DNA of 64,000 nt from an uncultured archaeon (GCA_964613955.1 CAZTJN010000001.1:97656-161655); one strand, 5' to 3'. Positions 5,613-64,000 are shown, counted from the first letter of the stretch. Notes: generated by a model from the sequence alone, not told the origin. Translations and numbers: made by a program.

Positions 5613-5631
5613 GGTTTTAAAATTTAAAACC
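5613..5631. promoter_or_regulatory. 19-bp perfect palindrome GGTTTTAAA-A-TTTAAAACC in a divergent intergenic region
   Basis: It lies between the divergent starts of the beta-helix gene (5566, minus) and ORF 5643 (plus), 12 bp upstream of the ATG at 5643. Candidate transcription-factor site. AT-rich, so chance is possible. Confidence 0.3.
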
Positions 5632-5642
5632 AAGGAATACGC

Positions 5643-6092
5643 ATGAAAGATCCGAGATTTTACATTCTCCCTTTAATTTCAGTAATCATCGTCGCAGTTT
5701 TTCTGGTGAACCCCGGCATAACGGGTCTTATCATAGGGACGGGAGGGAGCGCGGAAGAAAACCTGATGCAACTCAGCGGAAAAGTGAGTATAACCATCTC
5801 GAAAGACATAATCCCAGAGGATGCAGTGGTCACTGTTTTCTTCAGCGACCAGAGTTCAGCGATGCCCATAAAGGACTTCATAGAAAAATCAGGCAAGGAA
5901 TACGAGTTCAAATACGGGCGAATCTCTGAGATAGGATACGAAGGTTACGGCTACGGAAAGGGGACGTACACCCTTGACCTTTCGGATTTCGGTCTTAACC
6001 TCATGGTCGAACCGGGCAATTACACGCTGACAACAGAGATAAGTTATGAAAATTTCGTAATATCGAGCACATCGCAGGACGTTGTTGTCTGA
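5643..6092 (+). CDS. Small secreted/membrane-anchored protein (149 aa)
   Basis: N-terminal signal/anchor 'FYILPLISVIIVAVFLV', followed by Gly/Tyr-rich beta-like sequence. Confidence 0.45.
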   Translation: MKDPRFYILPLISVIIVAVFLVNPGITGLIIGTGGSAEENLMQLSGKVSITISKDIIPEDAVVTVFFSDQSSAMPIKDFIEKSGKEYEFKYGRISEIGYEGYGYGKGTYTLDLSDFGLNLMVEPGNYTLTTEISYENFVISSTSQDVVV

Positions 6093-6112
6093 AAATATCC
6101 GTCATTTATAAT

Positions 6113-7333: not shown

Positions 7334-7796
7334 TCTCCCCTTCTCCTATTTTAACCGATGAGCCAACCCCGAGGACCATGGCCCCCGTGACCCTGCTGAG
7401 AACAACGTCCGTGTTCCCTTCGTTCCTGACTTCGTTCTTCTCCCTTGCAAGCACAACGCTCGAACCCAGAGTAAATTTGCGGACCCCGCTTTCGAACACC
7501 CCGCTCCTGACCTTCCAGTAGTACGTCCCGAAATCCAAGTTGTTGCTGAACCTGAAGGAGTTGTCCGAAACTTTAACAGCGAAAGGACTTGTGAAATCTT
7601 GGTCGTCATCCACCAGAAGTTCATATTGTTTGTAGGGACCGCCCCACACAAATTCAGGCGCTCTTTCCGTTATATACACCCCGTTTTCCGGTTCTATCAG
7701 CGGGATGGCCGTTACGCCCGCCAGAAGATAGATAACTAATCCGATGACTAACAAATTCGCCAGTATCAGGGCCTTCGAAATCTTAAGTTTCGCCAA
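7311..7796 (-). CDS. Membrane-anchored protein with Fn3-like extracellular domain (161 aa)
   Basis: N-terminal TM helix 'ALILANLLVIGLVIYLLAGV'. 'GTYYWKV' type motif. Overlaps the upstream gene by 14 bp, suggesting an operon. Confidence 0.45.
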   Translation of the reverse strand: MAKLKISKALILANLLVIGLVIYLLAGVTAIPLIEPENGVYITERAPEFVWGGPYKQYELLVDDDQDFTSPFAVKVSDNSFRFSNNLDFGTYYWKVRSGVFESGVRKFTLGSSVVLAREKNEVRNEGNTDVVLSRVTGAMVLGVGSSVKIGEGENVKGEQA

Positions 7797-9414: not shown

Positions 9415-9456
9415 TTATAATCTTGGTGGCTAAGAAATAAAAATCGACTGTGAAAT

Positions 9457-10047
9457 TCAAAGAGTGCATCCAGTCGTGCTCTCAATCCAGTCCAGTGATT
9501 TCAGGCCTGTGTATATTTTGTTGTCGTAAACGATGGATGGTACCTCTTTCACCCCCAGCTGTTCGCATGCCTGCAGGTTCGCTCCTGTGCAGTCCACGTA
9601 AACCTTGTTGGCATAGTTTCCTATTGCCAGCAACTGCTGCAGCGTATTGGGTTCGCTCTTTTGACCAAGAACGATGAACCCTTTTGAGCGCAGACATTCA
9701 GCGAACTTCTTCTCTTTCTCGAGCCTAGCGAGGGTTCCGGAAACCTCCATTATGTTCTCTGAGAGAAACCTTCCGTCTTTCGTTGCGTAGAGCTCCTTTA
9801 TAACATCCCCGTCTCTCAGTTTCAACCTTACCAAAAGCTTGTAGACATACCCCTCGTCCTTGACGTTGAGAACCTCCACATCACTTTCCGTTAACATTTT
9901 GTAAACATTTTCCACGCTGTCCACAACCTGTTTTTGTGACCCGAGCGTGATAGTGTTCTGCAGAAGCATAAATGCGAGTATGATGACCAGAACCAATATT
10001 ATCCCTATGTAGACCAAATCCTTTTTCACAATCTTCTTTGGGGCCAT
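9457..10047 (-). CDS. Membrane-anchored thioredoxin/glutaredoxin-fold-like protein (putative)
   Basis: N-terminal TM helix 'LVYIGIILVLVIILAFMLL'. C-terminal 'GVKEVPSIVYDNKIYTG' resembles the cis-Pro/GG region of glutaredoxin/thioredoxin folds, and cysteines lie in 'FAECL' and 'VYVDCTGANLQAC'. There is no canonical CxxC motif, hence the low confidence. Confidence 0.35.
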   Translation of the reverse strand: MAPKKIVKKDLVYIGIILVLVIILAFMLLQNTITLGSQKQVVDSVENVYKMLTESDVEVLNVKDEGYVYKLLVRLKLRDGDVIKELYATKDGRFLSENIMEVSGTLARLEKEKKFAECLRSKGFIVLGQKSEPNTLQQLLAIGNYANKVYVDCTGANLQACEQLGVKEVPSIVYDNKIYTGLKSLDWIESTTGCTL

Positions 10048-10128
10048 ACAATAGAAATGGAAGCAGGATATAAAAAATTATAGTGGAGAGGGTGAAAAAG
10101 AAGGAAAAGGCACGGCGGAAATCCCTTC

Positions 10129-12666: not shown

Positions 12667-12712
12667 TTTTCTTCACCTCCCTTTTGTGACTTATTGGTCA
12701 CCATGATAACAC

Positions 12713-15700
12713 CTAAAAGTCCGAATTGTAATGCAAAACCCCCTTGAAGTACATGTTTCCTGTCGCAGAGTCTATGTATCCAACAACATTACCTCCCGAG
12801 TCCTGAACTATGAAATCATCATTTCCTGACGGAGTTGGACTGCCATTCTTGTAGAAATACCCCTTTGCAGCTAGGTTACCGGAACTGTCTATATACAGCA
12901 TCACACTCCCTCCCGAGTCCTTTAAGATAAAGCTGTTTGCAGGTGGGGACAGGGATGACTGCGCAGGTGAATAGCTTCCTTTCACATCCACGTACCCAAA
13001 TTTATCAAACCTGGCCTTCACAGAACCAGTTGAGTTTTGTATGAGCAAACATTTGTTCGTTGCATCGCATGTCGTTCCATGACCTCCGTCAATAGAATCA
13101 TCATTAACAACAAGCACGCTTGAATTCTTTGTGATTCCATCATCCACGCCATCGCTTGGCGTGACCTCGCATCTCCACTGATCGCCTATGTCGGTCTCCT
13201 GGCTGACCATGGTGGATTTATAGGAATAGCCGTCCTTGCTGTCCTGGTAAAGAGCATTAACCTGCTCAGGTGAAAGCGAGTAATTATATATGCGGACCTG
13301 ATCGATTGAGCCGTTGAAATAATTCTGTGCTACACCAATCTGCATGTCACTAGTGCCCTGCCAGTTAATTCCTGATGAGTTTGTCAGGTTATCAAGTTCT
13401 TGACCATTCACATAGAGCCTAGCGATTTGACCATCATAAGTGAATGCGACATGAACAAACTCATTAATAGGAAACTTATAAGATGAACCCCAAAGACTCT
13501 GCGGGGTTGAGCCTCCAAAGTTAATCTGAACCCGAGGATAATTATTATAATCCAGTAGTCTCCACCCACTAGAGTAACCATCCCCTTTCGCACTTTTAAC
13601 AATCCCATTCCAACCTGTTACGGATGTATTTTCATACGTTTTAACCCATAAGGATAGTGTAATATTTTCTGGAGCCAAGGAAATATCATTACCTACATCG
13701 ACATAGGCATTCACACCATCAAACTCGTAAGCCCCGCCAACCTTCCCGGAGGATGTCCAATTTGGTCCGTACAGTATGCCATTATTGGCATAACCCGAAT
13801 AATCCTTGGTTCCATTCGTGACCTTCGTATCAAACGGCATATTCAGAACCATTATTGATTTGTTGTTCTTGTACCAGTTGTAAATGTTTGTGACAGAATC
13901 CCCATCTTCATCATAAGTCGACTGATTCCAGCACGTTATGTTGTCACTGGTCATATTGTAACCGGATGTGCTGTTAATGAGCGGGTCTGAATGAGTGGGT
14001 TTTGCATTTACCTGGCAGGTTAGACTGCAGGAAATCGTGGCGTTACTGAACCCCGGCGGGTGCTCGTCGCACTGCGGGGAAGCGCCGCATTTCTGTTCGC
14101 AAAGATCATTTCCTGTCGCCCCCTCCCTCTGCGTCTTGTTGTTCGTCCAGCACCTCACGCACTTTCCATCCTCATCATCCTTGCCCGGATACTCGCTCGT
14201 TGTCCCTCCAGTCGGGCAGCAGTCAGAGTCCGCTATTGCAGAATAGCTCATCGGAACGCAAAGGGTCTGTGTGGTTGTGCAGGAACCTTCATTGCTGTTC
14301 GGATCCTCTGTGTCATTAATCTGGCCAGACCCGCACTCTTCTTCTCCTATCTCTAGGTAATATGTGGTCTCATCGTCAGGTTTTGTTGCGAATTCAGACC
14401 AGTCCATTGTTATTTCATAGTAATCCCCGTAAGTCCCTTCGTTTGAATCCGTGTCGTTGCACCAGTTCCTTAGGCCAGTGTCATAAAAGCATCCGTTTGT
14501 TCCGTAATTACAAGCCCCTGTTCCCGAGCCATCATCATCTATTCTCCATCTGTGGTGTCCTGAATTTGAATAGGTATCAGGAGTTTCGTCTGCCACATCC
14601 CATCTTATGGTCAACGTTTTGAACTGATCCGAACTGCCCGACTGGGTAAGATAACACTGGCCTATGTGTGGCCCGTTCCATGACTGGTTCAAGCACTGAT
14701 ATCCCTGATCCTGATTACTTGGACCATTTCCGTGGTCATTCCATATGGCATTTCCAACACAGCTTTCTTTGTCGTAGGTAGTTCCGGCCTCGCCCGAACC
14801 GTACGGATATTCAGTTCCTATGCCATCACAGTCGTCAGGTGTCAGGGGTTGACCTATCTGCTGCTTCCACGTGTTCGCTCCAGTTCCAGCACCGTCACAG
14901 TAGTAACCCACGCGTCTCGTGCACGAACTGTCTTGAGTGGCGACTCCTCCCAGATTCCCGTTACATCCGTAAATTTCCCCGTCGATGCACAAGTACTGGT
15001 TGCTCGAATCCGTGGTTCCATTTGTAACGGTCTCGCCGTTTATGCAGCAACTGTTGCCAGAACCTGAATTTTCGAAATCATCATTTGCTCCATCATCCCC
15101 GCAGCACTTGGAGTAAGAGCCTGTCCCACTGGAAAGCCAAGTATTCCCATCTAGTTCACAAGATGTTTGGTCACTATCCTGGGCATACCATAATGAAGAC
15201 AGGCAAACCTCATTGTCTGAACCATCACCACCACCTGTGTCTCTTATAGTTCCGTTGTCATAACAGCCATCCTGATTTGTTGTGTTACTTCCTGGTAGAG
15301 AGTCATCTACACAGTCAGTGGAATTCGGACAACAGCCTATACTTCCTGTCCCATCAGCACCACTACCTGCCTCGGAAATGTAGTAGCCGTACAACACATA
15401 GCCAAAACCTGTATCCCATTCCCTTATTTCAAGCTGATGGAAGTTTGCGGTGTCAGACGCATTATATATGTAATTATATCTCCATTCGTCATTTCCGCTG
15501 GCGGGAGTCGAACTGTTCACATTTGTGTTATGCTCGGTTGTGGTTACAATAGCATTCACATTCCCATCGGCATCATATACATTATACCTCAAACAAAGGT
15601 CTCCATCCGGGTTGCTTGGAGTTGTGTAACCATGGTCACCGCATTTCCCGTTACCTGAAGAATCACCGCTCCAGTAAGCACCTTGGGAATAATTGATGGT

Positions 15701-17932
15701 CATTAACACCCCCAAAGACAAACTTTCAACATCCCTGCACTGGTAAGTGTAAGAACAGCTGCCTTGATTATTATTGATCTGTTCTGAAACACAAATCTTA
15801 TTTGAGCCGCACTCTGAATCAGTGTCACAGCATGGGTTTCCATCTCTGCAACTCTGATAACTAAGGCACTCGGATGTTGTGCAGGCAGTACAAGACCCTC
15901 CAATACAATAGTTGTTACTGCCACAGTTATTGGTGTTCCAGTCACCTGAATTACAAATCCATGAATAGGCATCATCAGAAGAACTTCCATTGTCATAACA
16001 ATCAGGGGCATTCGCACCATTGGTGTATGCACTACCATCATGCATACAATTCCCGGCATTGGCACACCAGCATTCATCTCCGGAATCACAATTACCGTCA
16101 GCATTGCTACTTCCGTCATAGTCATCCCTACAGTATCCGGAAGAACAGACTCCATTTGATTCAGAAGAACTGTCTGTGTTTGTCACAGAGAAATCACAAG
16201 TCCCTCCCTGTGATTTTTGAGCTTGGCATAATGTAGAAGCATTACAGAAGAAACCTGACGGGCAATCGCTGTTCTGTGTACAAGCCAATGTGCAGTCATT
16301 AGAAGAAGTATTGCAGTGATATCCTGAAGCCGTGTCACACTGTGAATCAGTATTGCAATCATACCATGTCCCTGCGTTACAGTAATCGCTGTCCCCGTCG
16401 TTGTCTACATCCTTATTCGTATCGCCGTTGGATGCGTAGCAGTTCCCGCCTTGATCCGCAGGGTTATAACAATCTTGCATTGCTTCATCCCAATCGTTAT
16501 CAAATGGACACCCATCTGTTGGAATACAGACATCCCAACTATCGCAGGTGTTGCAGATACAACCATCCGCATTATCGCACACGCCTGCTCCTGCTGTCCC
16601 TGCGTATTCTGTGTCCTGCATGCAGTTCCCTGAAACACATGCAGTTTCTAGGTCGCAGTCGGAATACCCGTTGTATCTTTTGTAAATGCAGTCATTGCTT
16701 GTGCAGGCTTCACTGCAGTCTGTGCTGCCATAGCATGCATCACTGGTTTCTCCCTCTGCATACTCACCTGCCGGATCGCAGTGGCTCGTGTCTGTGCAGT
16801 CTATCCATGTACTTGATGAACATACGTCATCGTCTCCGTTGCTATCAACATCTTTTGTCCCGGAAGTTGCATAGCACGTGTCAGCATCAACGCAATCCGT
16901 CGAAGGATTGCAGCAGGCATCTGTGGATGCTGGTGGGTTTTCAATAGATGCTCCATAAGAACCAGTCAAGTAATTCTCCCCGCTGTCATCCCCACAACAA
17001 TTTGCGCTCGTTCCTGTATCGAAACCGAAACCCCGCGTTGGACCCCAGCAACTCCCTCCGCTACAACCTGTTGTTCCTTGTTTACAATTACACCAATTCT
17101 CATCTGTATCCCAGTTCACGGTATAAAGGCTGGGAAGAGTTGTGTTAATGGTCTCGTTTTCATAGGCCGAGCATGTCTGGTCACCACCGGCTGCATATGC
17201 TGTTACGTTCGCTACGTATGTCCCTTCTGTCGGGCAGAATGTGTAACCCAAATCATAAGTCCACGTTTCGTTCACCACGTAAGGGCTGCTGCTACATGAT
17301 CCTTCAGAGCTTTGGTACGTCATCCCGTGGGGTCCAGAGTCGCCACCGCCCGAAGGGGCAGTCACGGTTACCCACATCTGGCTTACGTCACAGCAATGAC
17401 ATGGAGAAACATCCGTCCCCGTGCAGTCAGCCCAGTTCTCAGCGTATGCATCTTCCCCTAGGAACGAAAATTTCAGATAGTGATGGCCTGTTTCGAGAAT
17501 TCTCAGAACAAGCCTCGCTTTTTCGCTACACTCCCAGTCTCTCGCGATAATTTTTCCATTGGACACGCCTTCAAAAAATTCATTCTTACCGCTGTCAGAA
17601 AAATATTTTTCAGCCTTAACCTCTCGGTTTCCGCACTGAAGCCTGATGAATTCGATGCTCTTCCCGAAATACGTTTTTTCATATGCCTGTATTTCAAGGT
17701 CTCCCTTCCCCTCTGTCTCGAAATTCACTACCCACCGGCCCCATAAAGTGGGACTGGAAACAGGGTTGAGGATTTTTATATGTGTGCTTCCGGAGGGAAG
17801 TTCGGGTTTGGGGAATATCATGTTGAGAAGCATTTCCAGAATAGTCGTCTGCTCCGCTTTTACCCCTATCGGAAAGACTGACAAGACCAGGCAAACTGTC
17901 AGCACCACCGATACCACGACCTTCCTATTCAT
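12713..17932 (-). CDS. Giant secreted Cys/Asp/Gly-rich protein (1739 aa) with C-terminal LamG/concanavalin-A-like lectin domain
   Basis: Signal peptide 'MNRKVVVSVVLTVCLVLSVFPIGVKA'. Hundreds of Cys in 'C..D.D.DG' type calcium-binding-like motifs, with internal repeats such as 'DVDSNGDDDVCSSSTWIDCTDTSHCD' and 'DVDNDGDSDYCNAGTWYDCNTDSQCD'. C-terminal region '...YEFDGVNAYVDVGNDISLAPENITLSLWVKT...GWRLL...FVHVAFTYDGQIARLYVNGQ...' matches the LamG_3 laminin-G/ConA fold signature. Confidence 0.8.
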   Translation of the reverse strand: MNRKVVVSVVLTVCLVLSVFPIGVKAEQTTILEMLLNMIFPKPELPSGSTHIKILNPVSSPTLWGRWVVNFETEGKGDLEIQAYEKTYFGKSIEFIRLQCGNREVKAEKYFSDSGKNEFFEGVSNGKIIARDWECSEKARLVLRILETGHHYLKFSFLGEDAYAENWADCTGTDVSPCHCCDVSQMWVTVTAPSGGGDSGPHGMTYQSSEGSCSSSPYVVNETWTYDLGYTFCPTEGTYVANVTAYAAGGDQTCSAYENETINTTLPSLYTVNWDTDENWCNCKQGTTGCSGGSCWGPTRGFGFDTGTSANCCGDDSGENYLTGSYGASIENPPASTDACCNPSTDCVDADTCYATSGTKDVDSNGDDDVCSSSTWIDCTDTSHCDPAGEYAEGETSDACYGSTDCSEACTSNDCIYKRYNGYSDCDLETACVSGNCMQDTEYAGTAGAGVCDNADGCICNTCDSWDVCIPTDGCPFDNDWDEAMQDCYNPADQGGNCYASNGDTNKDVDNDGDSDYCNAGTWYDCNTDSQCDTASGYHCNTSSNDCTLACTQNSDCPSGFFCNASTLCQAQKSQGGTCDFSVTNTDSSSESNGVCSSGYCRDDYDGSSNADGNCDSGDECWCANAGNCMHDGSAYTNGANAPDCYDNGSSSDDAYSWICNSGDWNTNNCGSNNYCIGGSCTACTTSECLSYQSCRDGNPCCDTDSECGSNKICVSEQINNNQGSCSYTYQCRDVESLSLGVLMTINYSQGAYWSGDSSGNGKCGDHGYTTPSNPDGDLCLRYNVYDADGNVNAIVTTTEHNTNVNSSTPASGNDEWRYNYIYNASDTANFHQLEIREWDTGFGYVLYGYYISEAGSGADGTGSIGCCPNSTDCVDDSLPGSNTTNQDGCYDNGTIRDTGGGDGSDNEVCLSSLWYAQDSDQTSCELDGNTWLSSGTGSYSKCCGDDGANDDFENSGSGNSCCINGETVTNGTTDSSNQYLCIDGEIYGCNGNLGGVATQDSSCTRRVGYYCDGAGTGANTWKQQIGQPLTPDDCDGIGTEYPYGSGEAGTTYDKESCVGNAIWNDHGNGPSNQDQGYQCLNQSWNGPHIGQCYLTQSGSSDQFKTLTIRWDVADETPDTYSNSGHHRWRIDDDGSGTGACNYGTNGCFYDTGLRNWCNDTDSNEGTYGDYYEITMDWSEFATKPDDETTYYLEIGEEECGSGQINDTEDPNSNEGSCTTTQTLCVPMSYSAIADSDCCPTGGTTSEYPGKDDEDGKCVRCWTNNKTQREGATGNDLCEQKCGASPQCDEHPPGFSNATISCSLTCQVNAKPTHSDPLINSTSGYNMTSDNITCWNQSTYDEDGDSVTNIYNWYKNNKSIMVLNMPFDTKVTNGTKDYSGYANNGILYGPNWTSSGKVGGAYEFDGVNAYVDVGNDISLAPENITLSLWVKTYENTSVTGWNGIVKSAKGDGYSSGWRLLDYNNYPRVQINFGGSTPQSLWGSSYKFPINEFVHVAFTYDGQIARLYVNGQELDNLTNSSGINWQGTSDMQIGVAQNYFNGSIDQVRIYNYSLSPEQVNALYQDSKDGYSYKSTMVSQETDIGDQWRCEVTPSDGVDDGITKNSSVLVVNDDSIDGGHGTTCDATNKCLLIQNSTGSVKARFDKFGYVDVKGSYSPAQSSLSPPANSFILKDSGGSVMLYIDSSGNLAAKGYFYKNGSPTPSGNDDFIVQDSGGNVVGYIDSATGNMYFKGVLHYNSDF

Positions 17933-18188
17933 TTCCGCCCTCCGTTAGGTAATTCCCGTTTACGAGTTTCGGGATCTCAAAGGCTTCCTGCTTTCTTGCA
18001 AACGAATAGAGCTTCGCTTTTCCCACGTCCCTCCTTTTCACATGACCCTTCGCCTCAAGAACCGCAAGATATTTGGAAGCCGTCACTCTGTGTATTCTCG
18101 CTTTCTCGGCTATCTCCAGAATAGTCAGAGAAATATCGGATTTTCTTAAAATGTCCAAAATCAGCTCCTCTAAAAAATCAGGACCCAT
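17925..18188 (-). CDS. Small winged helix-turn-helix transcriptional regulator (87 aa)
   Basis: 'LTILEIAEKARIHRVTASKYLAVLEAKGHVKRRDVGKAKLY' is the HTH recognition helix plus wing. Its 3' end overlaps the giant gene start by 8 bp, so the two are co-transcribed. Confidence 0.6.
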   Translation of the reverse strand: MGPDFLEELILDILRKSDISLTILEIAEKARIHRVTASKYLAVLEAKGHVKRRDVGKAKLYSFARKQEAFEIPKLVNGNYLTEGGNE

Positions 18189-44010: not shown

Positions 44011-45777
44011 ATGGATATTTTTACCCTTTACACTGAAAATTTGATCCCTCTGCTCTGTATACAAGTCGTAGTTTTCCTGTTGTTATTCTTTCTGAACATG
44101 GAAACCTTCAAAAGAGAATTCAGGAATGTGGATAAGAGGTACCTCATATTTTTGGCGGCTCTTGTCTTCATGATGCTGGCTTTGTATTCAAACACCACAG
44201 GATACGAGGGTGATTGGAAGTTTTGGCCAATGTCTGTAGCCAAGGACTTCTCCATGGGCAAAACCAATCTGTACTTCATGGACCCGTCAACTGTCAAGGG
44301 AAGAGTGGAGGGAAGGGACCCGTACCCTTGGGGACCGCTGACACCATTCCTACTTGGCATATTTTATTCGATATTAGGCATAAGTTCAGGAACAGTCTAC
44401 CTGTTTTACGGAACTGTACTCGCATTAAGCATGATTTCATTTTTCTTTTTGGGGTATATTTTGTTCAGGGACGGGAAGGTTTCAATACTTCTGGTATCTC
44501 TCTTTTGCATGGTTTTTCATGAAAGTTTTTTGGGAGGAAGTCTGGCGGAGTTTGACCTCGTCTTGCATTTATTTGTTTCCATGAGCCTGCTTTTTTCGTT
44601 AATGGCGTACAAAACGAACAAACATGTAATGTATATGCTCTCTCTTGTTTCCATTCTGCTTGCGGCGGAGATAAGATTTGAAGTCCTCGTTTTGTTCCCC
44701 GTATTCATCACGGGCATGCTCCTCTACAGAGTAAAGGACATGAAGAGGGTAAAGGAATTCTGGCTAAAAGGAATCGCTCCTGCAATGCTACTGTTCTTTG
44801 TCTTCCTGCCTGTCATTCTCACTCACGGATTTTCACATCATTTCTGGTCGCACAATGAAAGGGTATTTGGTCAATTCTGGGGCAATTCAATCTTCCCATC
44901 CATACCCGAGGGCGCAGGTATAACTATGGACGGCTTCCTTTACTTCTGGACTCATAACTTATTTTTATTCTTGACACCGTTGATGCTGATAGGGTTATTT
45001 GTTTCCTTAAAAAATAAGAAATACAGAAAGGTTGCTGTCTTGCTGTTGTTGCTTTTTCTGTTGCACAACTATGTATTTTTCAAATGGGATAACGGATACG
45101 AGGAGAAGTACGCATTCGCCTCAGCAGTTCCGTACATTTTACTTGCAGGATTGGGCATTAACGGTATCGTTAATTTTAAAGAAAAGCCCAAGTTTATAAA
45201 GGTAGGCACTATCTTGATTGGTATCTACCTTGTGTGTGTCTGGGGAGTTTTGTTTTCAGGTTTTCTTTATGACAAGAAAACTTCGGACCCCCTTGATACA
45301 AGCGACTTCGAGGAAGATGTTAAATCAATCCAAAATTATATAACAGGGGAAAAGCCAAACATACTGATGATGTCCACCGAGAGTACCAATCATAAATTCG
45401 AATTTCTTACTTTGTACAGCACCCTGGACTTCTTCAAGTATATATCAGATAATTTCTTGATTAGGAACTATCTTGGTGGCGAAAATGAATTTGGTATCAA
45501 CTTCCAAAGGGGGGGATTTTATTTTAATTCAACCTTGGAAGAAGTTCAAAGCAGGGTTTCTGAACTGTCAATGAATTTTACAGTCGAACGCATCATGAAC
45601 AATAAAACTATCCAAGAAATTATAAAGGATACTCTACTCACCAATAACACGTACGCAGTTTACGATAAATGCGGTTGTTGTGAATCGGAAATCACTCACA
45701 AAATCCTGACTAATGTTTTTAATACCGAGATTTTGTATGAAGGTGAATGCCTGAGACTTTATCATGTAGGTGGTTAA
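44011..45777 (+). CDS. GT-C fold membrane glycosyltransferase, PMT/ArnT-like, paralog group A
   Basis: 588 aa. 'FRNVDKRYLIFLAALVFMMLALY'. C-terminal '...ECLRLYHVGG'. Confidence 0.6.
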   Translation: MDIFTLYTENLIPLLCIQVVVFLLLFFLNMETFKREFRNVDKRYLIFLAALVFMMLALYSNTTGYEGDWKFWPMSVAKDFSMGKTNLYFMDPSTVKGRVEGRDPYPWGPLTPFLLGIFYSILGISSGTVYLFYGTVLALSMISFFFLGYILFRDGKVSILLVSLFCMVFHESFLGGSLAEFDLVLHLFVSMSLLFSLMAYKTNKHVMYMLSLVSILLAAEIRFEVLVLFPVFITGMLLYRVKDMKRVKEFWLKGIAPAMLLFFVFLPVILTHGFSHHFWSHNERVFGQFWGNSIFPSIPEGAGITMDGFLYFWTHNLFLFLTPLMLIGLFVSLKNKKYRKVAVLLLLLFLLHNYVFFKWDNGYEEKYAFASAVPYILLAGLGINGIVNFKEKPKFIKVGTILIGIYLVCVWGVLFSGFLYDKKTSDPLDTSDFEEDVKSIQNYITGEKPNILMMSTESTNHKFEFLTLYSTLDFFKYISDNFLIRNYLGGENEFGINFQRGGFYFNSTLEEVQSRVSELSMNFTVERIMNNKTIQEIIKDTLLTNNTYAVYDKCGCCESEITHKILTNVFNTEILYEGECLRLYHVGG

Positions 45778-47201
45778 CTTCTAGTTTTCTGAATTTCAAA
45801 AAGAAACCTTGTTGTCTTCCTCACGAGTTCCATTTCATTCATTACTCCTATTCGTAGCAGATTCTTCCAGTGTCTCAAGATAAAAGAAGGGCGTGCGTAG
45901 TATTTCCAGTAGAACTCTTTCTGTGCTCTCATCAGTCTTCCAGAGGGGACATTGCTGAAGTTGTGGATAAGTGTATCATAATGTGAAAACCTGCTAAAAA
46001 GGAATTTTTTCCTAAACTTTTCAAATATTGGCGAACCAGGATAGGGCGTAAAAAAAGCGACCTGTATGAGGTCAGAATCAATTTCCAAGGCGAGCTTGAA
46101 CGTTTTCTCTATCTCTTCCATGGTTTCTGTGGGACACCCTATCATAAAGAAGCAAACGGTAAACATATCCTCTTTATTTATCATGGAGGACGATTTTTTT
46201 ATCTCTCTCACCGTTATGCCCTTTCTCAATATATTCAGAATTCTGTCAGAACCGGATTCCACACCAAAACAGAGCGTTTCGCACCCGGAACTCTTCATCT
46301 CTTTTAACATCTCCCTGTTTATGTGGTTCAGTTTTATCTGTGCCGCCCATCTGACGTTAAGCTTACGTCTCTTCATCTCTTTGCATAGTGCAAGAACCCA
46401 TTTCTGATCGAAAGAAAAATTATCATCAAGGAAGAATATAGACTTAACCCCGAACCTATTTGTAATATATTCCATTTCATCAACTACATTTCTAGGGGTT
46501 CTTTTCCTAAACTTCTTCCCGTATGATACCCTGAGGGTCGGTGAACAAAATATACATTTGTATGGACACCCCCTGGTAGCTATGATGAAACCCCACTTAG
46601 TTTTTTTCGAAGCTGAGGGATAATAAATTCTGTAAAGTCCATTGGAGAACCATTCGTGTTTTGGGTAGGGAAGCGAATCCAGATCTTCTATTAACCTCTG
46701 TGGTTTTGTCTTAACAAACGAATTTCTCTCAGAATCAAAAAATGCGATTCCTCTTATCTTTCTGAAATTTTTTTTATTTCTCGACAAAGAGTTACACACA
46801 TCCAGAATAGTTTTTTCGGCTTCACCTATCATACAAATGTCAACTGGGGAATTTTTAAAAACCAATGTGTCTGGCAAGGCACTGGCATGCTGGCCCATGA
46901 AAATTATTTTCGAAGCATATTTTTCCTTGAAATACCTTGCCAATTTCATTGCGACCTCATATGCTGCGGTAGTCAAATGTATGACAACTATGCTTGGTCT
47001 GACTTTCCAGTTGAGAATCGTCCCATAAAAGTTTTTTTTGAAGATAGAATCAATTATGTGCACATTATAACCGTTCTTTTCCAAAACAGCTGCGCAGTAA
47101 CCAATATCCAGAGGGGGCTGAATGTTTATTGGGTGCTCCTTCTTAAAAACCAGATTGCTTGACAAACGAATGAACAAGATATTTTTCAATTTATCACCCA
47201 A
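45774..47201 (-). CDS. B12-binding domain radical SAM protein (class B)
   Basis: 'ATRGCPYKCIFCSPT' with an N-terminal B12-binding-like region. 475 aa. Convergent with ORF 44011 and overlaps it by 4 bp. Confidence 0.85.
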   Translation of the reverse strand: MGDKLKNILFIRLSSNLVFKKEHPINIQPPLDIGYCAAVLEKNGYNVHIIDSIFKKNFYGTILNWKVRPSIVVIHLTTAAYEVAMKLARYFKEKYASKIIFMGQHASALPDTLVFKNSPVDICMIGEAEKTILDVCNSLSRNKKNFRKIRGIAFFDSERNSFVKTKPQRLIEDLDSLPYPKHEWFSNGLYRIYYPSASKKTKWGFIIATRGCPYKCIFCSPTLRVSYGKKFRKRTPRNVVDEMEYITNRFGVKSIFFLDDNFSFDQKWVLALCKEMKRRKLNVRWAAQIKLNHINREMLKEMKSSGCETLCFGVESGSDRILNILRKGITVREIKKSSSMINKEDMFTVCFFMIGCPTETMEEIEKTFKLALEIDSDLIQVAFFTPYPGSPIFEKFRKKFLFSRFSHYDTLIHNFSNVPSGRLMRAQKEFYWKYYARPSFILRHWKNLLRIGVMNEMELVRKTTRFLFEIQKTRS

Positions 47202-48339
47202 ATAACATGCGCAGTAGCTTGTGTTTCCTACCTTCGATCTTTATTGCTAGGTTCGGGCAAACCTCCAGACATTGCATACACCCCACACATTTTTTATAGT
47301 CTATCTTGGGAGGCGTAATAGCGTTGGCAGCACACATTTTTACGCACTCCAAACATCTCGAACATCTCTCTTCCAAAATTACTGGCTTTTCCCTTATTTT
47401 TAAAGGGATGTTCAGTTTTTTCAATGGCCACGAGATTATCCTGCTCCTCATCGCCCAATTGTCCAGAAACGACTTCTTTCGTAAAGGGATTTCGAATTCC
47501 AAAGCGGGAATTTCCCCGGAAATTTTTATTTTTTCAAAATTGCTGCCCGGAAGATTCCTTTCTGTTGCATAATTTATCTGTTTTACAGAATGAAAATCAA
47601 CCCCCATAACCTTACACGCAACCATATCAACGCTTATGTTGTTGTCTCCCACTATTAACAAGTCTCCTCTGACAGGTTTCCCGTGTGTTGGTCCTGACCC
47701 CTCCATACCCATTATCCCTTCCACTACCGATAACCTTATTCTGTGGAGAAGCTTTTCATTCAATAAGGCTATCAGCATGTCTATGTTCTTTGAATGGAAT
47801 TTCCTTCTCCCTTTTCTGTTCAGGAACCCCATCAGATTTTTCATTCCCAAGGAAACTCCGGTGAGCGTGTGCGTCTTTAATTTGGGTATGTTTATAATAC
47901 CGTCCGCATCGAAAAGTGTTTTGGGCAAATAAATATCTTCCCTGTCCAATGATATTCTAACCCATTTATCTTCTTCCGAATTTATCAGTTCTATTCTCAA
48001 ATCTTTACACATCCTTTTAAATCCTGTTATCTTCATGGTTTCCTCAAAATCGTAAATCTGTATGGGGGCCTCTATTATCAGGGGTTCGGCTCCGATCCTT
48101 TTAAGATACTTAGCTATTACCTCAACAATCCTTACATCAGTAGTTGCCCCTGTTGAGGAAGGGAATGGCGAAGATATATTTGGTTTGAGCACTATCCTTT
48201 CTCCTTTCTCAGCAAAATTGGATTTATCCAAAACCCTCAAGAACTCCCCTTTTAACGAAATAAAATTTTTGTTCCTCAAGACATAAACCTTGGACATATG
48301 AAATTCTTGACAACAATTTTTAAAAGCCAATAAACTCAT
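47194..48339 (-). CDS. DUF362-domain protein fused to a C-terminal 2x[4Fe-4S] ferredoxin domain
   Basis: C-terminal 'CSRCLECVKMCAANAI' and 'CVGCMQCLEVCPNLAI' are two CxxCxxCxxxCP motifs. The N-terminal 300 aa are typical of DUF362 architecture. Overlaps its neighbours by 8 and 4 bp, indicating an operon. Confidence 0.65.
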   Translation of the reverse strand: MSLLAFKNCCQEFHMSKVYVLRNKNFISLKGEFLRVLDKSNFAEKGERIVLKPNISSPFPSSTGATTDVRIVEVIAKYLKRIGAEPLIIEAPIQIYDFEETMKITGFKRMCKDLRIELINSEEDKWVRISLDREDIYLPKTLFDADGIINIPKLKTHTLTGVSLGMKNLMGFLNRKGRRKFHSKNIDMLIALLNEKLLHRIRLSVVEGIMGMEGSGPTHGKPVRGDLLIVGDNNISVDMVACKVMGVDFHSVKQINYATERNLPGSNFEKIKISGEIPALEFEIPLRKKSFLDNWAMRSRIISWPLKKLNIPLKIREKPVILEERCSRCLECVKMCAANAITPPKIDYKKCVGCMQCLEVCPNLAIKIEGRKHKLLRMLFG

Positions 48340-58541: not shown

Positions 58542-60257
58542 CTATACCTCTTCACCTCTGACCAGATAGTTTCCAATTGCAAGGTAATCCAGCTTCGCCT
58601 CAAGAAAAGCCCTTATTGCATCATTCGGATTTTCAACTATGGGTTCTTCGTGCATGTTGAAGCTGGTGTTTATAATAGTGGGAATGCCTGTTATCTTTCT
58701 ATAACCGTCAATTACCTTGTAAAATGACGGATTATATTTTTTGTCTACCAATTGAGGTCTTGCTGTCCCGTCCACATGTACGGCTCCCGGGCATTTATCC
58801 TTCATCCAATCTGTGCATTCAAAAGTTACGGTCATGAAACGGGCTGCATGCATAGCCTTTTTGTAGTTTTTGTAACACCTGCCGGCGTATTCAATAAGAG
58901 TGGAAGGGGCGAAGGGCATAAATTCCGTTCTGCCAAGCTTTTTGTTCAGCCAGTCATTGACAGTAGGGTCCGTGGCCTGATATAATATACTTCTATTGCC
59001 AAGAGCACGGGGTCCGTATTCCATTTTTCCTGTAAATCTCGCGACAGTTTTCCCCTCAGAAAGCAGCTTTGCAATTCTTGGTTCTATTCGCCTGTAAAAC
59101 TTATAAGCTAAGTTGTGTTTTATGAGTTCTTTTTTTATCTCTTTGTCTGAATAACCCCAGCCCAGATAAACATGATTCAGATTTTGGTATTTTACTTCAC
59201 CACCATGTCTTCTTGACATTCTTGATTGGACATACAGGGCGGCACCAACCGATAACCCACCATCACCCATGTTAGGGAATACATAAAGAGATTTAACTTC
59301 AGGAAGTTCACAAATCCTCTGGTTCAATTTCACGTTTGCGAAAACCCCCCCAGCAAGGACAACATCTCTTACCCCTGTTTTCTCCACCCAACTTTTCACT
59401 ATACTGCAGATCCCTGTTTCAAAATTCTTCTGTAACCATGCTGCTATATCCTCCCTTGGGTGTTTGAGAAGTTTCTTGCCGTTTTGTTTGATTCCTTTCC
59501 TGCCCCATTTACTTATGTAGGAAACCATTTGTCCGTTAATCAAAAATGGAAATTCAACATTTACGTTTTCAGGATTCCCGTATGCGGCAAGGCCAGTTAT
59601 CTTCCCCTCATGCCTGTGTGACTTAAACCCTAGCATCAGTGTTATCAGACTGTAAAACAAACCGAAAGAGTCCCAAGCGCCAATTTCATAAACCCTATTT
59701 ATATTTCCGTTTCTGCATAGACTGACAGTAAGCGAAACACCATCTCCATACCCATCGGCGGTCACACAAAGAGCCTCTCTCTTCCCTGATGTAAAATATG
59801 CTGAACTCGCATGTGCCAAATGATGGTCCACGAAAATTACAGGTTTTTTTCTCAGTTCTCTTGGTAAATCCCTCCTTAATATACGAGTGATTAACCCCCT
59901 CCCCAGGACCGACCATGAAGAATCAGGCTTTATCAAGGGCCATTTCATTTTGAACTTTATAAAATCTGAAATTCGCGCTTTCAAATCGTTCTTCCCAGAC
60001 AAAACTTCACTTTCCATTCTGTGCAAATTTCTGAACATCCTAGTCAGAATGAACGGACTTACCAAACCACCGACCGCTATGAAATCTATGTCACTCCTTT
60101 TTTTGTCGACTATCCTGTCAATAGCATTCCTTGGGAATCCGGGATGTAGCTTGATTCTGCTCAGCCGTTCCTCATTAACAGCATAAATAATGTCACCGTT
60201 CTCCAGTAAACAAGCGCTTCCCTCCTTCCCGTCTGATATGCCCAGTATCTTTATGAT
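58542..60257 (-). CDS. NodU/CmcH-family carbamoyltransferase
   Basis: 'VDHHLAHASSAYFTSG...ALCVTADGYGDG' and the C-terminal domain are typical of this family. The first canonical start (TTG at 60065, as used by the ORF track) would delete the conserved N-terminus. The open frame continues upstream to a stop at 60303-60305 and encodes 'IKILGISDGKEGSACLLENGDIIYAVNEERLSRIK', the family's N-terminal motif. No ATG, GTG or TTG occurs in this extension, so the 5' end is approximate. Confidence 0.75.
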   Translation of the reverse strand: MIKILGISDGKEGSACLLENGDIIYAVNEERLSRIKLHPGFPRNAIDRIVDKKRSDIDFIAVGGLVSPFILTRMFRNLHRMESEVLSGKNDLKARISDFIKFKMKWPLIKPDSSWSVLGRGLITRILRRDLPRELRKKPVIFVDHHLAHASSAYFTSGKREALCVTADGYGDGVSLTVSLCRNGNINRVYEIGAWDSFGLFYSLITLMLGFKSHRHEGKITGLAAYGNPENVNVEFPFLINGQMVSYISKWGRKGIKQNGKKLLKHPREDIAAWLQKNFETGICSIVKSWVEKTGVRDVVLAGGVFANVKLNQRICELPEVKSLYVFPNMGDGGLSVGAALYVQSRMSRRHGGEVKYQNLNHVYLGWGYSDKEIKKELIKHNLAYKFYRRIEPRIAKLLSEGKTVARFTGKMEYGPRALGNRSILYQATDPTVNDWLNKKLGRTEFMPFAPSTLIEYAGRCYKNYKKAMHAARFMTVTFECTDWMKDKCPGAVHVDGTARPQLVDKKYNPSFYKVIDGYRKITGIPTIINTSFNMHEEPIVENPNDAIRAFLEAKLDYLAIGNYLVRGEEV

Positions 60258-60317
60258 ACCACCTTTGAGTACGATATTGATAATTAAAATTAAATAATTT
60301 AATTACTACCTTTAACT

Positions 60318-61187
60318 ATGGACAAACCATACCTACGTTATGGAATTCAGCTTCAGGAATTGCTTGCTGTGAAACATGGCATAAAACCAGTCCTAAGGAC
60401 TGTGATAAATCCTAAAAATATCAAAAATATAGAAACCCTCTGCAGGGAAGATAATATGTTCTCCATGACAAAATCTTTCAACCATCTTTATGGGACAAAG
60501 TTTGATTCAGCCCTGAACGTAATCTACATCTCCAAATCCAAGGATTTATTGAATAAAGCATACCTGTCCGATAAGTCAGGAGACAGAAAAAAGCTTGGGG
60601 AAGTTCTGGGGTATCCGGAGTGTTGCGTTGAATTTTTCTCAGGAGCACTCAAAGACGCGGAATCTCCTTTTCCGGTTAAAACATATCTTAAAACAAATGG
60701 CAAGCCTTCATTTCTGGTTAACAATGTTTTCAAGCTCGAATCCAGACTAAGTTCCAGTGGGGTTGAAAAAATCCAGAAAAATCCCGATTTTGCCAACAGG
60801 ATTTCCCACCTTTTCTTGATATCCCACATACCCTGCTCATACAATTGCAGAGAAAGCATTAAAATAGGCAGGGAAATGCTCGTCCTGCTGAAAAGGGAAG
60901 AACCTGAGCTGGCAAAGGAAATAGCATCCACACTCAAGAAGCCATTGCTCTTTTTTGACGACCTGAATTGGGTGATATTTGATGGCAAGGTGAACGGCAA
61001 AATTATAGATTACACCTCTATATGGCCTCCCTTATCACTGATGCCGGAAAACCTTATAAACAAATTCAGGGAAGGGGACAAGGTTAAAGTGGGAAAGGAA
61101 TATGTGGAAATATTCAGAGATGGTGAAATCATACACAGAATAAAAAAGAAACATAAATATGATGGAATTCTTTTGGATTTTTCATGA
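60318..61187 (+). CDS. Uncharacterised conserved protein with paired Cys motifs 'LGYPECC' and 'HIPCSYNC' (copy 1)
   Basis: 289 aa and soluble. A paralog starts at 63689 with 'LGYPECCIDFF'. Four conserved Cys suggest a possible metal site. Its stop abuts the stop of the convergent radical SAM gene 61188-62117. Confidence 0.5.
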   Translation: MDKPYLRYGIQLQELLAVKHGIKPVLRTVINPKNIKNIETLCREDNMFSMTKSFNHLYGTKFDSALNVIYISKSKDLLNKAYLSDKSGDRKKLGEVLGYPECCVEFFSGALKDAESPFPVKTYLKTNGKPSFLVNNVFKLESRLSSSGVEKIQKNPDFANRISHLFLISHIPCSYNCRESIKIGREMLVLLKREEPELAKEIASTLKKPLLFFDDLNWVIFDGKVNGKIIDYTSIWPPLSLMPENLINKFREGDKVKVGKEYVEIFRDGEIIHRIKKKHKYDGILLDFS

Positions 61188-62117
61188 TTACGGAACGGGA
61201 ACCAGCTCCTCAAAACCCCTTCTTTCTGCATATTCCTTGAATATCCCTTCACACACGTTGTAGTACTTACAACCTACACATTGAGGACCCCTGACCCTTC
61301 CATACTCCCTTCTGTTTTTTTCCACATTTAAATCCTTGAATTCAGGTCCCACGTGCTCCTCCTTCAATCTGTCCTTACTTTCGTATTCACTCAGGTAACT
61401 CTCGTATCCCACACCAAGCATGTAACACAGAGGAAGGTATCTCATTACAAAATGGTTGATCTTGTGGGATTTTCCCACTATTATGGTTTTTGGTATATAA
61501 TCAACTATTTCCTTAAGTGTTGGGACGATTTCTTCAAAGTTTTTCAGTGCATTCCCGCGTGGGTGTATGAAAATGAATTCGCATGCATCCGCCCCGAGTT
61601 TTATGTTGTTCTCTGCTATCTGCGGGAGATATTTGTAGTTCGGTCTTACTATAACGGTATTCGTACAAAGGTAAATGTCCGGCTTTATCTCTTTTATGTT
61701 CTTCATTCCAGCCGTTAACTGTTTGAATGCTCCCGGTGACCTTGTGAGGTAATCGTGGAGTTCTGCATTATGTCCGTGTATCGAAAATATGATGTGATTC
61801 AAACCGCATTTTATGATTCTTTCAGCGAAATCTTTGTAATAAAGCATCCTCCCGTTCGTGGTCATGCCTATTGTGTTATAACCGAGTTTTCTTGCATAAT
61901 CAATAAGCTCGAAAATATCCTTTCTTATTGCCGGTTCACCTCCTAAGAAATCTACGAAATTGCAACCTCTTTTAAATCCTTCTTCCAGTTCTTCTTTGGC
62001 CTCTTTAGTTGTTTTGGCTTTTATATTTTTATTAAATCTTTTGTCTGCGCAGTAGCAGAAACGACAGTTGTTGTTGCATTCATACCCCAAGATTAGAGAA
62101 AGTTTTCTTGTGACCAT
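61188..62117 (-). CDS. Radical SAM protein (stand-alone, about 310 aa) with C-terminal Cys cluster (copy 1)
   Basis: 'LGYECNNNCRFCYC' CxxxCxxC motif. C-terminal 'CVGCKYYNVCEG'. Paralog of ORF 62684-63649. Confidence 0.75.
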   Translation of the reverse strand: MVTRKLSLILGYECNNNCRFCYCADKRFNKNIKAKTTKEAKEELEEGFKRGCNFVDFLGGEPAIRKDIFELIDYARKLGYNTIGMTTNGRMLYYKDFAERIIKCGLNHIIFSIHGHNAELHDYLTRSPGAFKQLTAGMKNIKEIKPDIYLCTNTVIVRPNYKYLPQIAENNIKLGADACEFIFIHPRGNALKNFEEIVPTLKEIVDYIPKTIIVGKSHKINHFVMRYLPLCYMLGVGYESYLSEYESKDRLKEEHVGPEFKDLNVEKNRREYGRVRGPQCVGCKYYNVCEGIFKEYAERRGFEELVPVP

Positions 62118-62317
62118 CTTGACCTACGAAATATTTATAAACAAGTTTTATAACTTTAAATTTACGACCATCAACCAATTAATATGGAAACTAAAAACTA
62201 CCATGTACAAAGTTGCCTACTCGATTCGTTTATCAGACAAATTAAAAATTTCGCTCTTAAAAATTTAAAAAATTATTATATTTTTTCATTTCTCATTCAA
62301 GGATATTACCCCAGATA

Positions 62318-62659
62318 ATGGTGAGAAAATCAAGAAAATTGTCAAAGACCAGAATCATGGAGGTCTGCGGTTTCGGTGAGCATATCCCATTCAGGGAAAG
62401 ATTATTCGAAGTGATATTAATGCAATCCTCCTATGCACATTTTTCCAATTTAGAAAAGGTTCTTAAAAATGTATACAAAACTTTAAATGACAGAGGGAGG
62501 CTCGTGATATTCGAGGAGCATGCACTAATTATCAAGGAATCAGAATTCTGGACAAAGCACTGCAGAGACCATAATCTAAAAGAAGCAATTTCAGAAATCA
62601 AAAAATATAAATTCAAAATTATTGACAATTTTGAGCATAACGGGAGTTGGGGATTTTAG
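62318..62659 (+). pseudogene. Class I SAM-dependent methyltransferase fragment (C-terminal part only)
   Basis: 'LFEVILMQSSYAHFSNLEKVLKNVYKTLNDRGRLVIFE' resembles motifs II/III of Methyltransf_11-type enzymes, but the GxGxG motif I and the N-terminal 60 or more aa are absent. 113 aa. Confidence 0.35.
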
Positions 62660-62683
62660 CGATAAAACAGGGAGATTAGAACT

Positions 62684-63649
62684 CTAACAGAATTCCTTTT
62701 CAAACTGTTCAAGGGTTTTCACCTTCCTTCCTAGGACTGGTTTAAGTTCATTAAGACCATAAAGGTTTGCATACTCTTTCCACAGACCATAACAAATGTC
62801 ATCAAATCTACATTTTTTACATGTACTTCCCTTTAACATGTTTTTTTTGAGTTCAGATTCTATTATCATTGTGAAGTTCGGGTTCTTTATTACCATTTTG
62901 GATGGGATTTTTATGAAGTTTATGTATTTTTCATGGCCCTCTAGGAAGCATGGTGGTATGTAACTAATTCCCATATTCCTGTCCGAAAATGTATTCAGAA
63001 CATCTGTAATGTAGGTGATTACATCAGAGATCGTGGGTATTGCTTCCTTATTTATTAATAAACTTCCACATGCCGTTGCAAAACTAAGAGTTACATGACC
63101 AACCCCAAGTTTCCATGAGAATTTTGCTATTTCAGAAAGGTATTTGTAGTTGAGTTTTGTTATTGCTACAATTACCTCTACATTTAAAACATTACCTGCA
63201 TATCTAACCAAGTTTTTAATTCCACTGACAGTTTCCCCAAAACTCCCTTTAACCCCTGTCAATTTTTCATGCAGCTTTGGCTTGTGTCCATAAATGAATA
63301 CTGAAAAAATGTTTGCTCCAGATTTTATCATTTTCCTTGCGTATTCTTTATCACTAAATTTTCTCCCGTTGCTCTCTATACAAATATTTTTGAAGCCCAA
63401 ACTTTTTGCATAAGATATGATTTGCATAATATTCGGTCTGATCGTTACTTCCCCTCCTGTAAATTTAACATCATCGGCAAACTTTTTAATTATTTTTAGC
63501 TCCTTCCTAACGTCCTCTGCGCTTTTTCTTGGAAAATCTTCTTTGTTCAAGGAGCAAAATGAGCATCTGTTGTTGCAGTTCGGACCCAGATAGACTTCAG
63601 GGACGAAAAGCTGTTTTATGTTGCTACTCATACCTAAAACCCCAAACAA
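62684..63649 (-). CDS. Radical SAM protein (stand-alone, about 320 aa) with C-terminal Cys cluster (copy 2)
   Basis: 'LGPNCNNRCSFCSL' CxxxCxxC motif. C-terminal 'CKKCRFDDICYG'. Paralog of ORF 61188-62117. Confidence 0.75.
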   Translation of the reverse strand: MFGVLGMSSNIKQLFVPEVYLGPNCNNRCSFCSLNKEDFPRKSAEDVRKELKIIKKFADDVKFTGGEVTIRPNIMQIISYAKSLGFKNICIESNGRKFSDKEYARKMIKSGANIFSVFIYGHKPKLHEKLTGVKGSFGETVSGIKNLVRYAGNVLNVEVIVAITKLNYKYLSEIAKFSWKLGVGHVTLSFATACGSLLINKEAIPTISDVITYITDVLNTFSDRNMGISYIPPCFLEGHEKYINFIKIPSKMVIKNPNFTMIIESELKKNMLKGSTCKKCRFDDICYGLWKEYANLYGLNELKPVLGRKVKTLEQFEKEFC

Positions 63650-63688
63650 TTTAATACTTTAATATGTAAGTTTTAAAAGTGATTTAGT

Positions 63689-64000
63689 ATGGATTTAAAG
63701 TACGCTTCAGAAAATGGTTTGAATCCTCAGGAAGTTTTGTTGCTAATGAACGATATGAAATCTGTAATAAGATCTGGGATACCTTCAAAGAAATGTTACA
63801 AGAATCTGGTATTTTCATGCAATAAATATGGACTACATTTTCTGAAGGGGAAATTCAAAGAAGGTTCAGAGGAACAGGTTTTTTATATATCTAAATCAAA
63901 AAGTTTGGCAAGAGATGCCTACGAGGCGGAAAGAGGCGGTAATAAAAAAGAATTGGGGAGACTTCTAGGATACCCAGAATGTTGCATAGATTTTTTCGTA
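63689..64000 (+). CDS. Uncharacterised 'LGYPECC'-motif protein (copy 2), 5' part (runs off window end)
   Basis: ATG at 63689. The encoded sequence 'MDLKYASENGLNPQEVLLLMND...YISKSKSLARDAYEAERGGNKKELGRLLGYPECCIDFFV' is a clear paralog of ORF 60318, for example 'YISKSKDLLNKAYLSDKSGDRKKLGEVLGYPECCVEFF'. Not in the ORF track because it has no stop in the window. Confidence 0.5.
   Translation, partial: MDLKYASENGLNPQEVLLLMNDMKSVIRSGIPSKKCYKNLVFSCNKYGLHFLKGKFKEGSEEQVFYISKSKSLARDAYEAERGGNKKELGRLLGYPECCIDFFV

Follow-up and report, generated by a model that had tools for sequence, protein, structure and literature searches.

In the maturation of ribosomally synthesized and post-translationally modified peptides (RiPPs), radical S-adenosylmethionine (rSAM) enzymes with an auxiliary cluster rely on a distinct protein to present the substrate, either as a partner or within a fusion, as in PqqE-PqqD and MftC-MftB. 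In the HXS antiphage system (HxsA/B/C/D), two rSAM enzymes work with a small non-rSAM partner, HxsC binding HxsD (PMC13128918). A third arrangement, a module of an rSAM gene, a DUF483 gene and a gene of unknown function, has been described in Thermus phages together with rSAM-DUF483 fusions found in InterPro (bioRxiv 10.1101/2024.08.14.607894). Here we analyse an array of DUF483 and rSAM genes at the end of a 64,000-nt stretch of DNA (CAZTJN010000001.1:97656-161655, referred to below as the window) from an uncultured archaeon, a small member of the DPANN group. The window contains DUF483-A, rSAM1, rSAM2 and the first part of DUF483-B (Table 1), and the near-identical contig L001 (2 of 3683 nt differ from the window's tail) supplies the full-length DUF483-B. 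Other contigs and loci used for comparison are likewise denoted by L numbers. The DUF483 family has been catalogued and its link to rSAM enzymes is not new, being briefly noted in print in the same bioRxiv study. Three findings are new: a Cys/His ligand signature in DUF483, its direct fusion to an rSAM subfamily resembling HxsC, and the diversified multi-paralog two-gene arrays that bring this same subfamily together with DUF483 in glycosylation islands of DPANN archaea.

The original prediction, made from the sequence of the window, placed four open reading frames (ORFs) in this region; all four were found, and the paralogy proposed within each of the two sets was confirmed. DUF483-A and DUF483-B are collinear paralogs with 33% identity over the full length (E-value 3e-51), both containing the motif LG.(V/L)LGYPECC, while rSAM1 and rSAM2 share 31% identity (E-value 5e-44) and exhibit the motifs CNNNCRFC and CNNRCSFC, respectively. 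The Cys-motif proteins had been left without a family; the Pfam search assigns them to DUF483 (PF04467), with scores of 27.9 bits for DUF483-A, 38.2 bits for the full-length DUF483-B (L001, positions 4473-5363) and 33.2 bits for a third paralog, DUF483-C, against a gathering cut-off of 25 bits. The 104-aa fragment of DUF483-B that lies in the window scores slightly under this cut-off (23.1 bits). DUF483 comprises 3045 clusters at 50% identity (E-value <=1e-3) and is not a well-characterised family; neither NCBIfam nor PADLOC contains a DUF483 model, and a literature search for DUF483 (PF04467, IPR007556, COG1849) or for radical SAM in DPANN/Aenigmarchaeota returned nothing relevant.

All three paralogs, DUF483-A, -B and -C, contain the signature G-Y-P-x-C-C followed by H-x-P-C-S-x-x-C (GYPECC at positions 98-103 and HIPCSYNC at positions 170-177 of DUF483-A). 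In an alignment of 212 family members, residues G98, P100, C102, C103 and C177 are essentially invariant, each of the four Cys residues is kept in 195 to 211 sequences, and H170 is present in 188. Position 173 is occupied by Cys in 195 members and by His in the remaining 17, with no other residue observed; this exclusive Cys/His exchange is the behaviour expected of a metal ligand, and fits the metal-binding role that had been suggested for the protein before its family was recognized. Strong conservation extends to K23, N135, S174, Y175 (or F), S180 and Y232. A weak PHROGs match over the GYPxCC stretch, to a family labelled "replication initiation", was judged uninformative.

The AlphaFold2 model of DUF483-A (pLDDT, the predicted local distance difference test, 91.7; predicted template modelling score 0.87) places the Cys motifs in a helical domain, between an N-terminal alpha/beta and a C-terminal beta domain. 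The Foldseek search of the PDB with this model reported nothing at E<0.1 (best matches: 2guk, E-value 0.16; NleE, 0.26), the list also including scattered short methyltransferase-like segments, all at E>=0.1, and no fold resembling the RiPP recognition element (RRE). The profile search of PDB sequences with DUF483 gave no match, and the BFVD search returned only short uncharacterised phage proteins.

The rSAM1 and rSAM2 proteins score 86.6 and 76.7 bits with PF04055 (cut-off 29.5). The cluster-binding residues C14, C18 and C21 (CxxxCxxC) and the GGE motif (G59-G60-E61) are invariant, as is a C-terminal set of C231, C280, C283 and C289. The latter had been read as CxxCxxxxC; the motif is in fact CxxCx5C, accompanied by a fourth invariant Cys about 50 residues upstream, and the four residues suggest one twitch-type auxiliary cluster site, as judged from the sequences. 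The SPASM model PF13186 does not match rSAM1 or rSAM2, which argues that the array rSAMs are not SPASM proteins proper (a 7-Cys motif). Among curated models, the best scores of rSAM1 and rSAM2 are obtained with HxsC4 (169.5 and 135.7 bits, cut-off 500) and HxsC (92 and 86 bits, cut-off 267.9); these values are far under the cut-offs and thus identify the array rSAMs as relatives of those families and not as members. The viperin model NF038283 yields 61.3 bits against a cut-off of 180, which does not qualify for pVip, and the PADLOC pVip matches (~60 bits) correspond to the generic rSAM core only.

The model of rSAM1 (pLDDT 94.4) has BlsE (7vob) as its best structural match (E-value 8e-13, template modelling score about 0.6), and BlsE is also the top PDB sequence match of the rSAM (52 bits). 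It is followed by GDGT-MAS, SkfB, viperin-like enzymes, SuiB, DesII and MoaA. The substrates of these enzymes range over nucleoside-sugars, lipids, peptides and nucleotides, so that the fold leaves the substrate here unfixed. Conservation of rSAM1 reaches 50-85% identity in Aenigmarchaeota, Diapherotrites, Altiarchaeota and Nanohaloarchaea, far above that of DUF483-A.

The association of the two families was assessed in a non-random sample of 22 full-length DUF483 genes, taken from the window and L001, L004, L008, L010, L016 (Altiarchaeota), the Thermus phages phiMa, Cumys and phiLo, and three phage- or mobile-element-like loci; an rSAM gene is the immediate neighbour of about 20 of them. The two families also occur as natural fusions, rSAM-DUF483 in P0097 and P0109 and rSAM-DUF483-DUF483 in P0039, whose rSAM parts are matched over the full length, with 280-302 bits, by the profile hidden Markov model built from the rSAMs of this very array. 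Adjacency in many genomes and phages, together with fusions of the same rSAM subfamily, bears out the two-component unit that had been proposed from the window. Further fusions join DUF483 to class I methyltransferases and, in P0052, to an N-terminal DUF362 plus 4Fe-4S ferredoxin (Fer4) region, a hint of a third recurrent partner. Small ORFs of unassigned type that lie beside the module in other loci gave no Pfam matches.

Three of the loci outside the Aenigmarchaeota deserve separate mention. In the Thermus phage Cumys (L019, 837-4067) the rSAM-DUF483 module comes right after baseplate/tail-fibre genes rather than within a group of genes for DNA metabolism. The jumbo phage phiLo (L018, 1591-4103) has a 482-aa rSAM followed by a 344-aa "methyltransferase" with a sub-threshold DUF483 domain. 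In Diapherotrites (L015, JAPLVS010000054, 12357-12857) a 166-aa protein with a precomputed Pfam HxsD match is encoded two genes from a cognate 317-aa rSAM, inside an rSAM array free of DUF483; this match was not reproduced with a local copy of Pfam.

The array continues past the end of the window. On L001 the order is DUF483-B, an rSAM of 322 aa, an rSAM of 289 aa, DUF483-C (293 aa) and a partial, cut-off rSAM, which brings the array to at least three DUF483 and at least five rSAM genes, about two rSAMs per DUF483, with two rSAMs flanking one DUF483 as a recurring unit. The array paralogs are 30-47% (rSAM) and 35-37% (DUF483) identical to each other, and the ortholog groups obtained by clustering with other Aenigmarchaeota contigs (L004/L009, L008, L010) keep the same neighbours: group D1 occurs with R1/R2, D3 with R7 and R3, and D2 with R3. 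The earlier view of a duplicated pair therefore holds as regards the paralogous neighbours; a simple tandem duplication is ruled out, with one pair convergent and the other divergent, about two rSAMs for each DUF483 in an array of at least three plus five genes, and old paralogs, whose identity of only 30-47% and whose orthologs common to several genomes lead us to reject a recent event. The spacers of the array measure 0-57 bp and contain no small ORFs, which leaves no space for small precursor genes.

On L001, the N-terminal 66 residues of the R7-group rSAM at 6333-7202 are 90% identical to those of the window's rSAM1, against 31-33% for orthologous pairs elsewhere over the same region, which suggests gene conversion between the paralogs; the following rSAM (8166-8501) is a near-identical recent copy of the C-terminus of the R7-group rSAM.

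Of the described systems, the module of the Thermus phages Cumys and phiMa has in common with the archaeal array that a DUF483 protein with the CC...C/HxxxC signature is encoded directly beside an rSAM, its function likewise unassigned. The phage rSAMs, however, belong to another, larger subfamily (~380-416 aa) of marginal similarity and are encoded upstream of and co-directionally with DUF483, and a third conserved gene of unknown function completes the module. In the archaeal array, which lacks a third gene, ~300-aa HxsC-like rSAMs outnumber DUF483 about two to one and are convergent with it or divergent from it; the paralogs are multiple and diverged, and the context is one of chromosomal glycosylation. 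Of the features of the phage module only the adjacency is found, and the orientation, third gene and rSAM subfamily are not. The resemblance to HXS lies in the HxsC4 and HxsC models being the best curated matches of the array rSAMs, whereas the window lacks an HxS-repeat effector, an HxsB-type enzyme and HxsD. DUF483 itself is unrelated to HxsD, about twice its size and endowed with a Cys4 site, and with rSAM scores under both cut-offs and no adjacent HxsD-like protein the locus does not belong to HXS. As in the RiPP systems, an rSAM, here with a predicted auxiliary cluster, is paired with or fused to a separate protein; in contrast to them, no precursor peptide gene, no small ORF in the spacers and, among the PDB matches of the DUF483 model, no RRE-like (PqqD-like) fold was detected here. 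DUF483 is also distinguished by its length of ~290 aa, its three domains and a Cys site of metal-binding type. The array rSAMs share the partial TIM barrel with a C-terminal Cys-rich extension with BlsE, DesII, viperin and MoaA, from which they differ by an identity of 16-24% and NCBIfam scores all far below the cut-offs. To our knowledge, none of these four enzymes needs a DUF483-like partner.

We propose that DUF483 is a metal-binding partner subunit of cognate auxiliary-cluster rSAMs, which in this archaeon would tailor surface glycans or glycoproteins. DUF483 would serve as the dedicated non-rSAM partner of a clade of ~300-aa rSAMs with one auxiliary four-Cys cluster site. A metal, Zn or an Fe-S cluster, would be held by C102, C103, C/H173 and C177 with H170 nearby, and may organise a pocket lined by K23, N135, S174, Y175, S180 and Y232. 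Each DUF483 paralog is envisaged to dock on one or two cognate rSAMs and, once docked, to present the substrate or to add a second step, e.g. electron transfer or ligand binding, in a role that by analogy might resemble that of HxsD serving HxsC. The targets of such radical tailoring would be sugar or nucleotide-sugar precursors of surface glycans, or glycosylated surface proteins, and several paralogous enzyme pairs could account for several different surface modifications. The parts of this proposal differ in strength: the partner relation is well supported and in our opinion very probable, the metal site, deduced from conservation, is likely, and the glycan substrate is a leading guess that we hold tentatively; taken as a whole, the proposal falls a little short of an even chance.

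The case for a glycan substrate comes from the position of the array at the edge of a glycosylation island, which makes the tailoring of cell-surface glycans its most likely job here and with which the glycan-related role suggested earlier is in agreement, and from the rSAM fold, since the nearest solved structure, BlsE, acts on a nucleoside-sugar and DesII and viperin are also among the top matches. In L004, too, the array is flanked by this island, while L008 and L006 have similar sugar genes next to it. Several observations speak against the proposal. The island location is circumstantial as evidence for glycans, the best curated models of the rSAMs are the protein-modifying HxsC and HxsC4, SkfB and SuiB, two of the fold neighbours, are peptide maturases, and the phage contexts suggest other substrates. 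Two archaeal DUF483 genes (L006, L007) adjoin a methyltransferase instead of an rSAM, and cognate rSAM arrays in L015 and L017 have no DUF483 within 7 kb, hence the partner is not universally required in cis. A bolder version of the proposal, in which DUF483 is a metal-cluster domain without structural precedent and the obligatory second subunit of a large rSAM clade, with a catalytic Fe-S cluster at Cys3(Cys/His) that would take part through electron or sulfur donation or substrate ligation, and in which diversified DPANN batteries of such pairs equip surface glycans with radical-derived modifications of a kind not yet described, appears unlikely.

The fold and model matches to protein-modifying enzymes raise the possibility, in our view doubtful, that the island is a mere neighbour and that the target of the rSAMs, of which there are often two per DUF483, is a protein that is secreted or exposed at the surface, for example a pilin or an S-layer protein, with DUF483 acting as an HxsD-like adaptor. 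HxsC4 and HxsC are the best curated matches of both rSAMs (169 and 136 bits, 92 and 86 bits), and HxsC, in complex with its small partner, acts on a protein, HxsA (PMC13128918). The top fold matches include SkfB and SuiB, the Cumys module lies among phage tail genes, a precomputed Pfam HxsD match is found near a cognate rSAM in L015, and in L004 and L006 a gene for an archaeal A24 prepilin-type peptidase lies within the DUF483/rSAM array or adjoins it. The scores, however, stay far below the cut-offs of 500 and 268 bits, a scan of the window and of related loci (L001-L011) revealed no His-Xaa-Ser repeat protein, and the spacers are too tight to accommodate precursor ORFs. When aligned with the HxsD-like protein, DUF483 proved dissimilar (hhalign probability 0.2), the HxsD match in L015 was not reproduced by the local Pfam search, and the PDB matches of DUF483 include no RRE-like fold. 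DUF483 might instead not be a co-enzyme at all, being either the protein substrate of the rSAM, modified at Cys, or a generic helper (Fe-S donor, electron donor or scavenger of SAM by-products). The invariant CC and CxxxC could be modification targets as well as cluster ligands, DUF483 associates with both rSAMs and class I methyltransferases, which have SAM in common, and a fusion to a DUF362 plus ferredoxin module exists, with a free-standing copy of that module in the window. Nonetheless, a Cys-to-His swap suits a ligand and not a modification target, many polar residues are conserved outside the Cys site, a generic helper would not call for three to four diverged paralogs, each with rSAM partners of its own that are retained from genome to genome, and stable rSAM-DUF483 fusions would be unusual for an enzyme-substrate pair, all of which makes this explanation improbable.

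The phage loci point in yet another direction, namely that DUF483 binds a nucleotide or DNA of which the rSAM alters the base or sugar, for self-DNA marking or for the synthesis of antiviral nucleotides. Such a function has been proposed for the Thermus phage rSAM-DUF483 locus, whose homologs are linked to cyanobacterial deazapurine DNA-modification genes (bioRxiv 10.1101/2024.08.14.607894). Primase, dUTPase, thymidine kinase and dNMP kinase accompany distant DUF483 members in phage-like contigs. The top fold matches of the rSAM include MoaA and viperin-like enzymes, and PADLOC gave weak matches to pVip. The archaeal array is nevertheless surrounded by glycosyltransferases and not by DNA-metabolism genes, the rSAM falls far short of the viperin model (61 bits against 180), and the phage rSAMs form a different, larger subfamily of marginal similarity. 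Three to four diverged DUF483 and five to seven rSAMs per genome, in a genome of ~0.8 Mb (as in the complete relative CP070809), would also fit a single DNA mark poorly, and for the archaeal array we consider this function very unlikely. To the view that the adjacency is coincidental, without any functional link, we attach virtually no credence: some DUF483 genes have no rSAM next to them and cognate rSAM arrays without DUF483 exist, but the adjacency holds for about 20 of the 22 genes, from archaeal phyla to bacteriophages, and gene fusion has occurred repeatedly and independently, so that the natural rSAM-DUF483 fusions effectively refute it.

Table 1. Features at the end of the window (positions counted from its first nucleotide)
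Feature	Position	Strand	Description
Carbamoyltransferase (NodU/CmcH type)	58542..60065	-	Carbam_trans_N/C matches; context gene, outside the unit
DUF483-A	60318..61187	+	289 aa; ortholog group D2; PF04467, 27.9 bits
rSAM1	61188..62117	-	309 aa; ortholog group R3; C14xxxC18xxC21, GGE, four auxiliary Cys
Class I SAM methyltransferase remnant	62318..62659	+	113 aa; C-terminal part; Methyltransf_11 profile positions 34-95 of 95
rSAM2	62684..63649	-	Ortholog group R2; Cys architecture as in rSAM1
Short AT-rich spacer	63650..63688		Between the divergent rSAM2 and DUF483-B
DUF483-B	63689..64000	+	First 104 aa of a 296-aa protein; ortholog group D1; leaves the window

DUF483-A and rSAM1 are convergent with 0 bp between them (61187/61188), and on L001 the likewise convergent DUF483-B and the next rSAM share a 4-bp overlap (5360-5363). 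As such junctions leave no space for terminators, antisense-overlapping transcripts are to be expected. rSAM2 and DUF483-B are divergent with a gap of 39-57 bp. The rSAM2 product has 321 aa if translated from TTG 63649 and 315 aa from ATG 63631, the latter being the choice of the gene caller and probably the genuine start. The AT-rich spacer between the two genes may serve as a shared bidirectional promoter region; spacers of 35-57 bp are also present at the remaining divergent rSAM/DUF483 junctions of L001. The methyltransferase remnant sits between the two rSAM genes and keeps the C-terminal two thirds of the domain. A search of all reading frames 5' of it revealed no motif-I region, and the syntenic contig L004 lacks the remnant at the corresponding position. 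Elsewhere, intact methyltransferases adjoin DUF483 or are fused to it. No tRNA or Rfam features were found in the window.

The carbamoyltransferase gene, divergent to DUF483-A, is the final gene of the glycosylation island, and this synteny is retained in L004 and L002. Its conserved N-terminus (IIKILGISDGKEGSACL...) extends in frame 5' of the listed TTG start, over 60066-60260 on the minus strand, a segment in which no ATG, GTG or TTG codon was found; the gene has either a non-canonical start or a damaged N-terminus. If the extension is in use, the spacer to DUF483-A shrinks to ~60 bp.

The glycosylation island covers positions 18300-60100 (~42-45 kb) and is built of repeated modules of GT2, PMT_2 (GT-C) and B12-binding rSAM genes. 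It encodes four GT2 and six PMT_2 (GT-C) enzymes, five B12-binding rSAMs, two SPASM rSAMs and two further rSAMs, along with epimerases/dehydratases, a DegT aminotransferase, LPG_synthase_TM, an amine oxidase, a protein with DUF362 and ferredoxin domains and the carbamoyltransferase. The window as a whole has eleven rSAM genes, rSAM1 and rSAM2 included. The stand-alone DUF362 plus 4Fe-4S ferredoxin protein (47194-48339, minus strand) adjoins a B12-binding rSAM (45774-47201), and three island proteins of 544-588 aa (at 28198, 36604 and 44011) gave no Pfam match. The preceding part of the window (1-18000) differs in GC content (0.44-0.53 vs 0.30-0.43 in the island), and its large ORFs are all on the minus strand. 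It encodes the surface-type proteins NosD/beta-helix (3245-5566) and CARDB (6113-7333) and two very large ORFs of 845 aa (10129-12666) and 1739 aa (12713-17932).

The genomes of DPANN archaea are tiny, yet in this one at least eight genes belong to the array and eleven rSAM genes fall within 64 kb, which suggests that this chemistry is important for the cell surface, where these archaea meet their hosts. With its several paralogs, the array provides matched pairs of enzyme and partner suited to co-expression. DUF483 comprises ~3000 clusters with no solved structure or significant PDB fold match, yet is nearly always tied to rSAMs; once its role is known, thousands of genes would gain an annotation, and a new mode of substrate or cofactor recruitment by rSAM enzymes could come to light.

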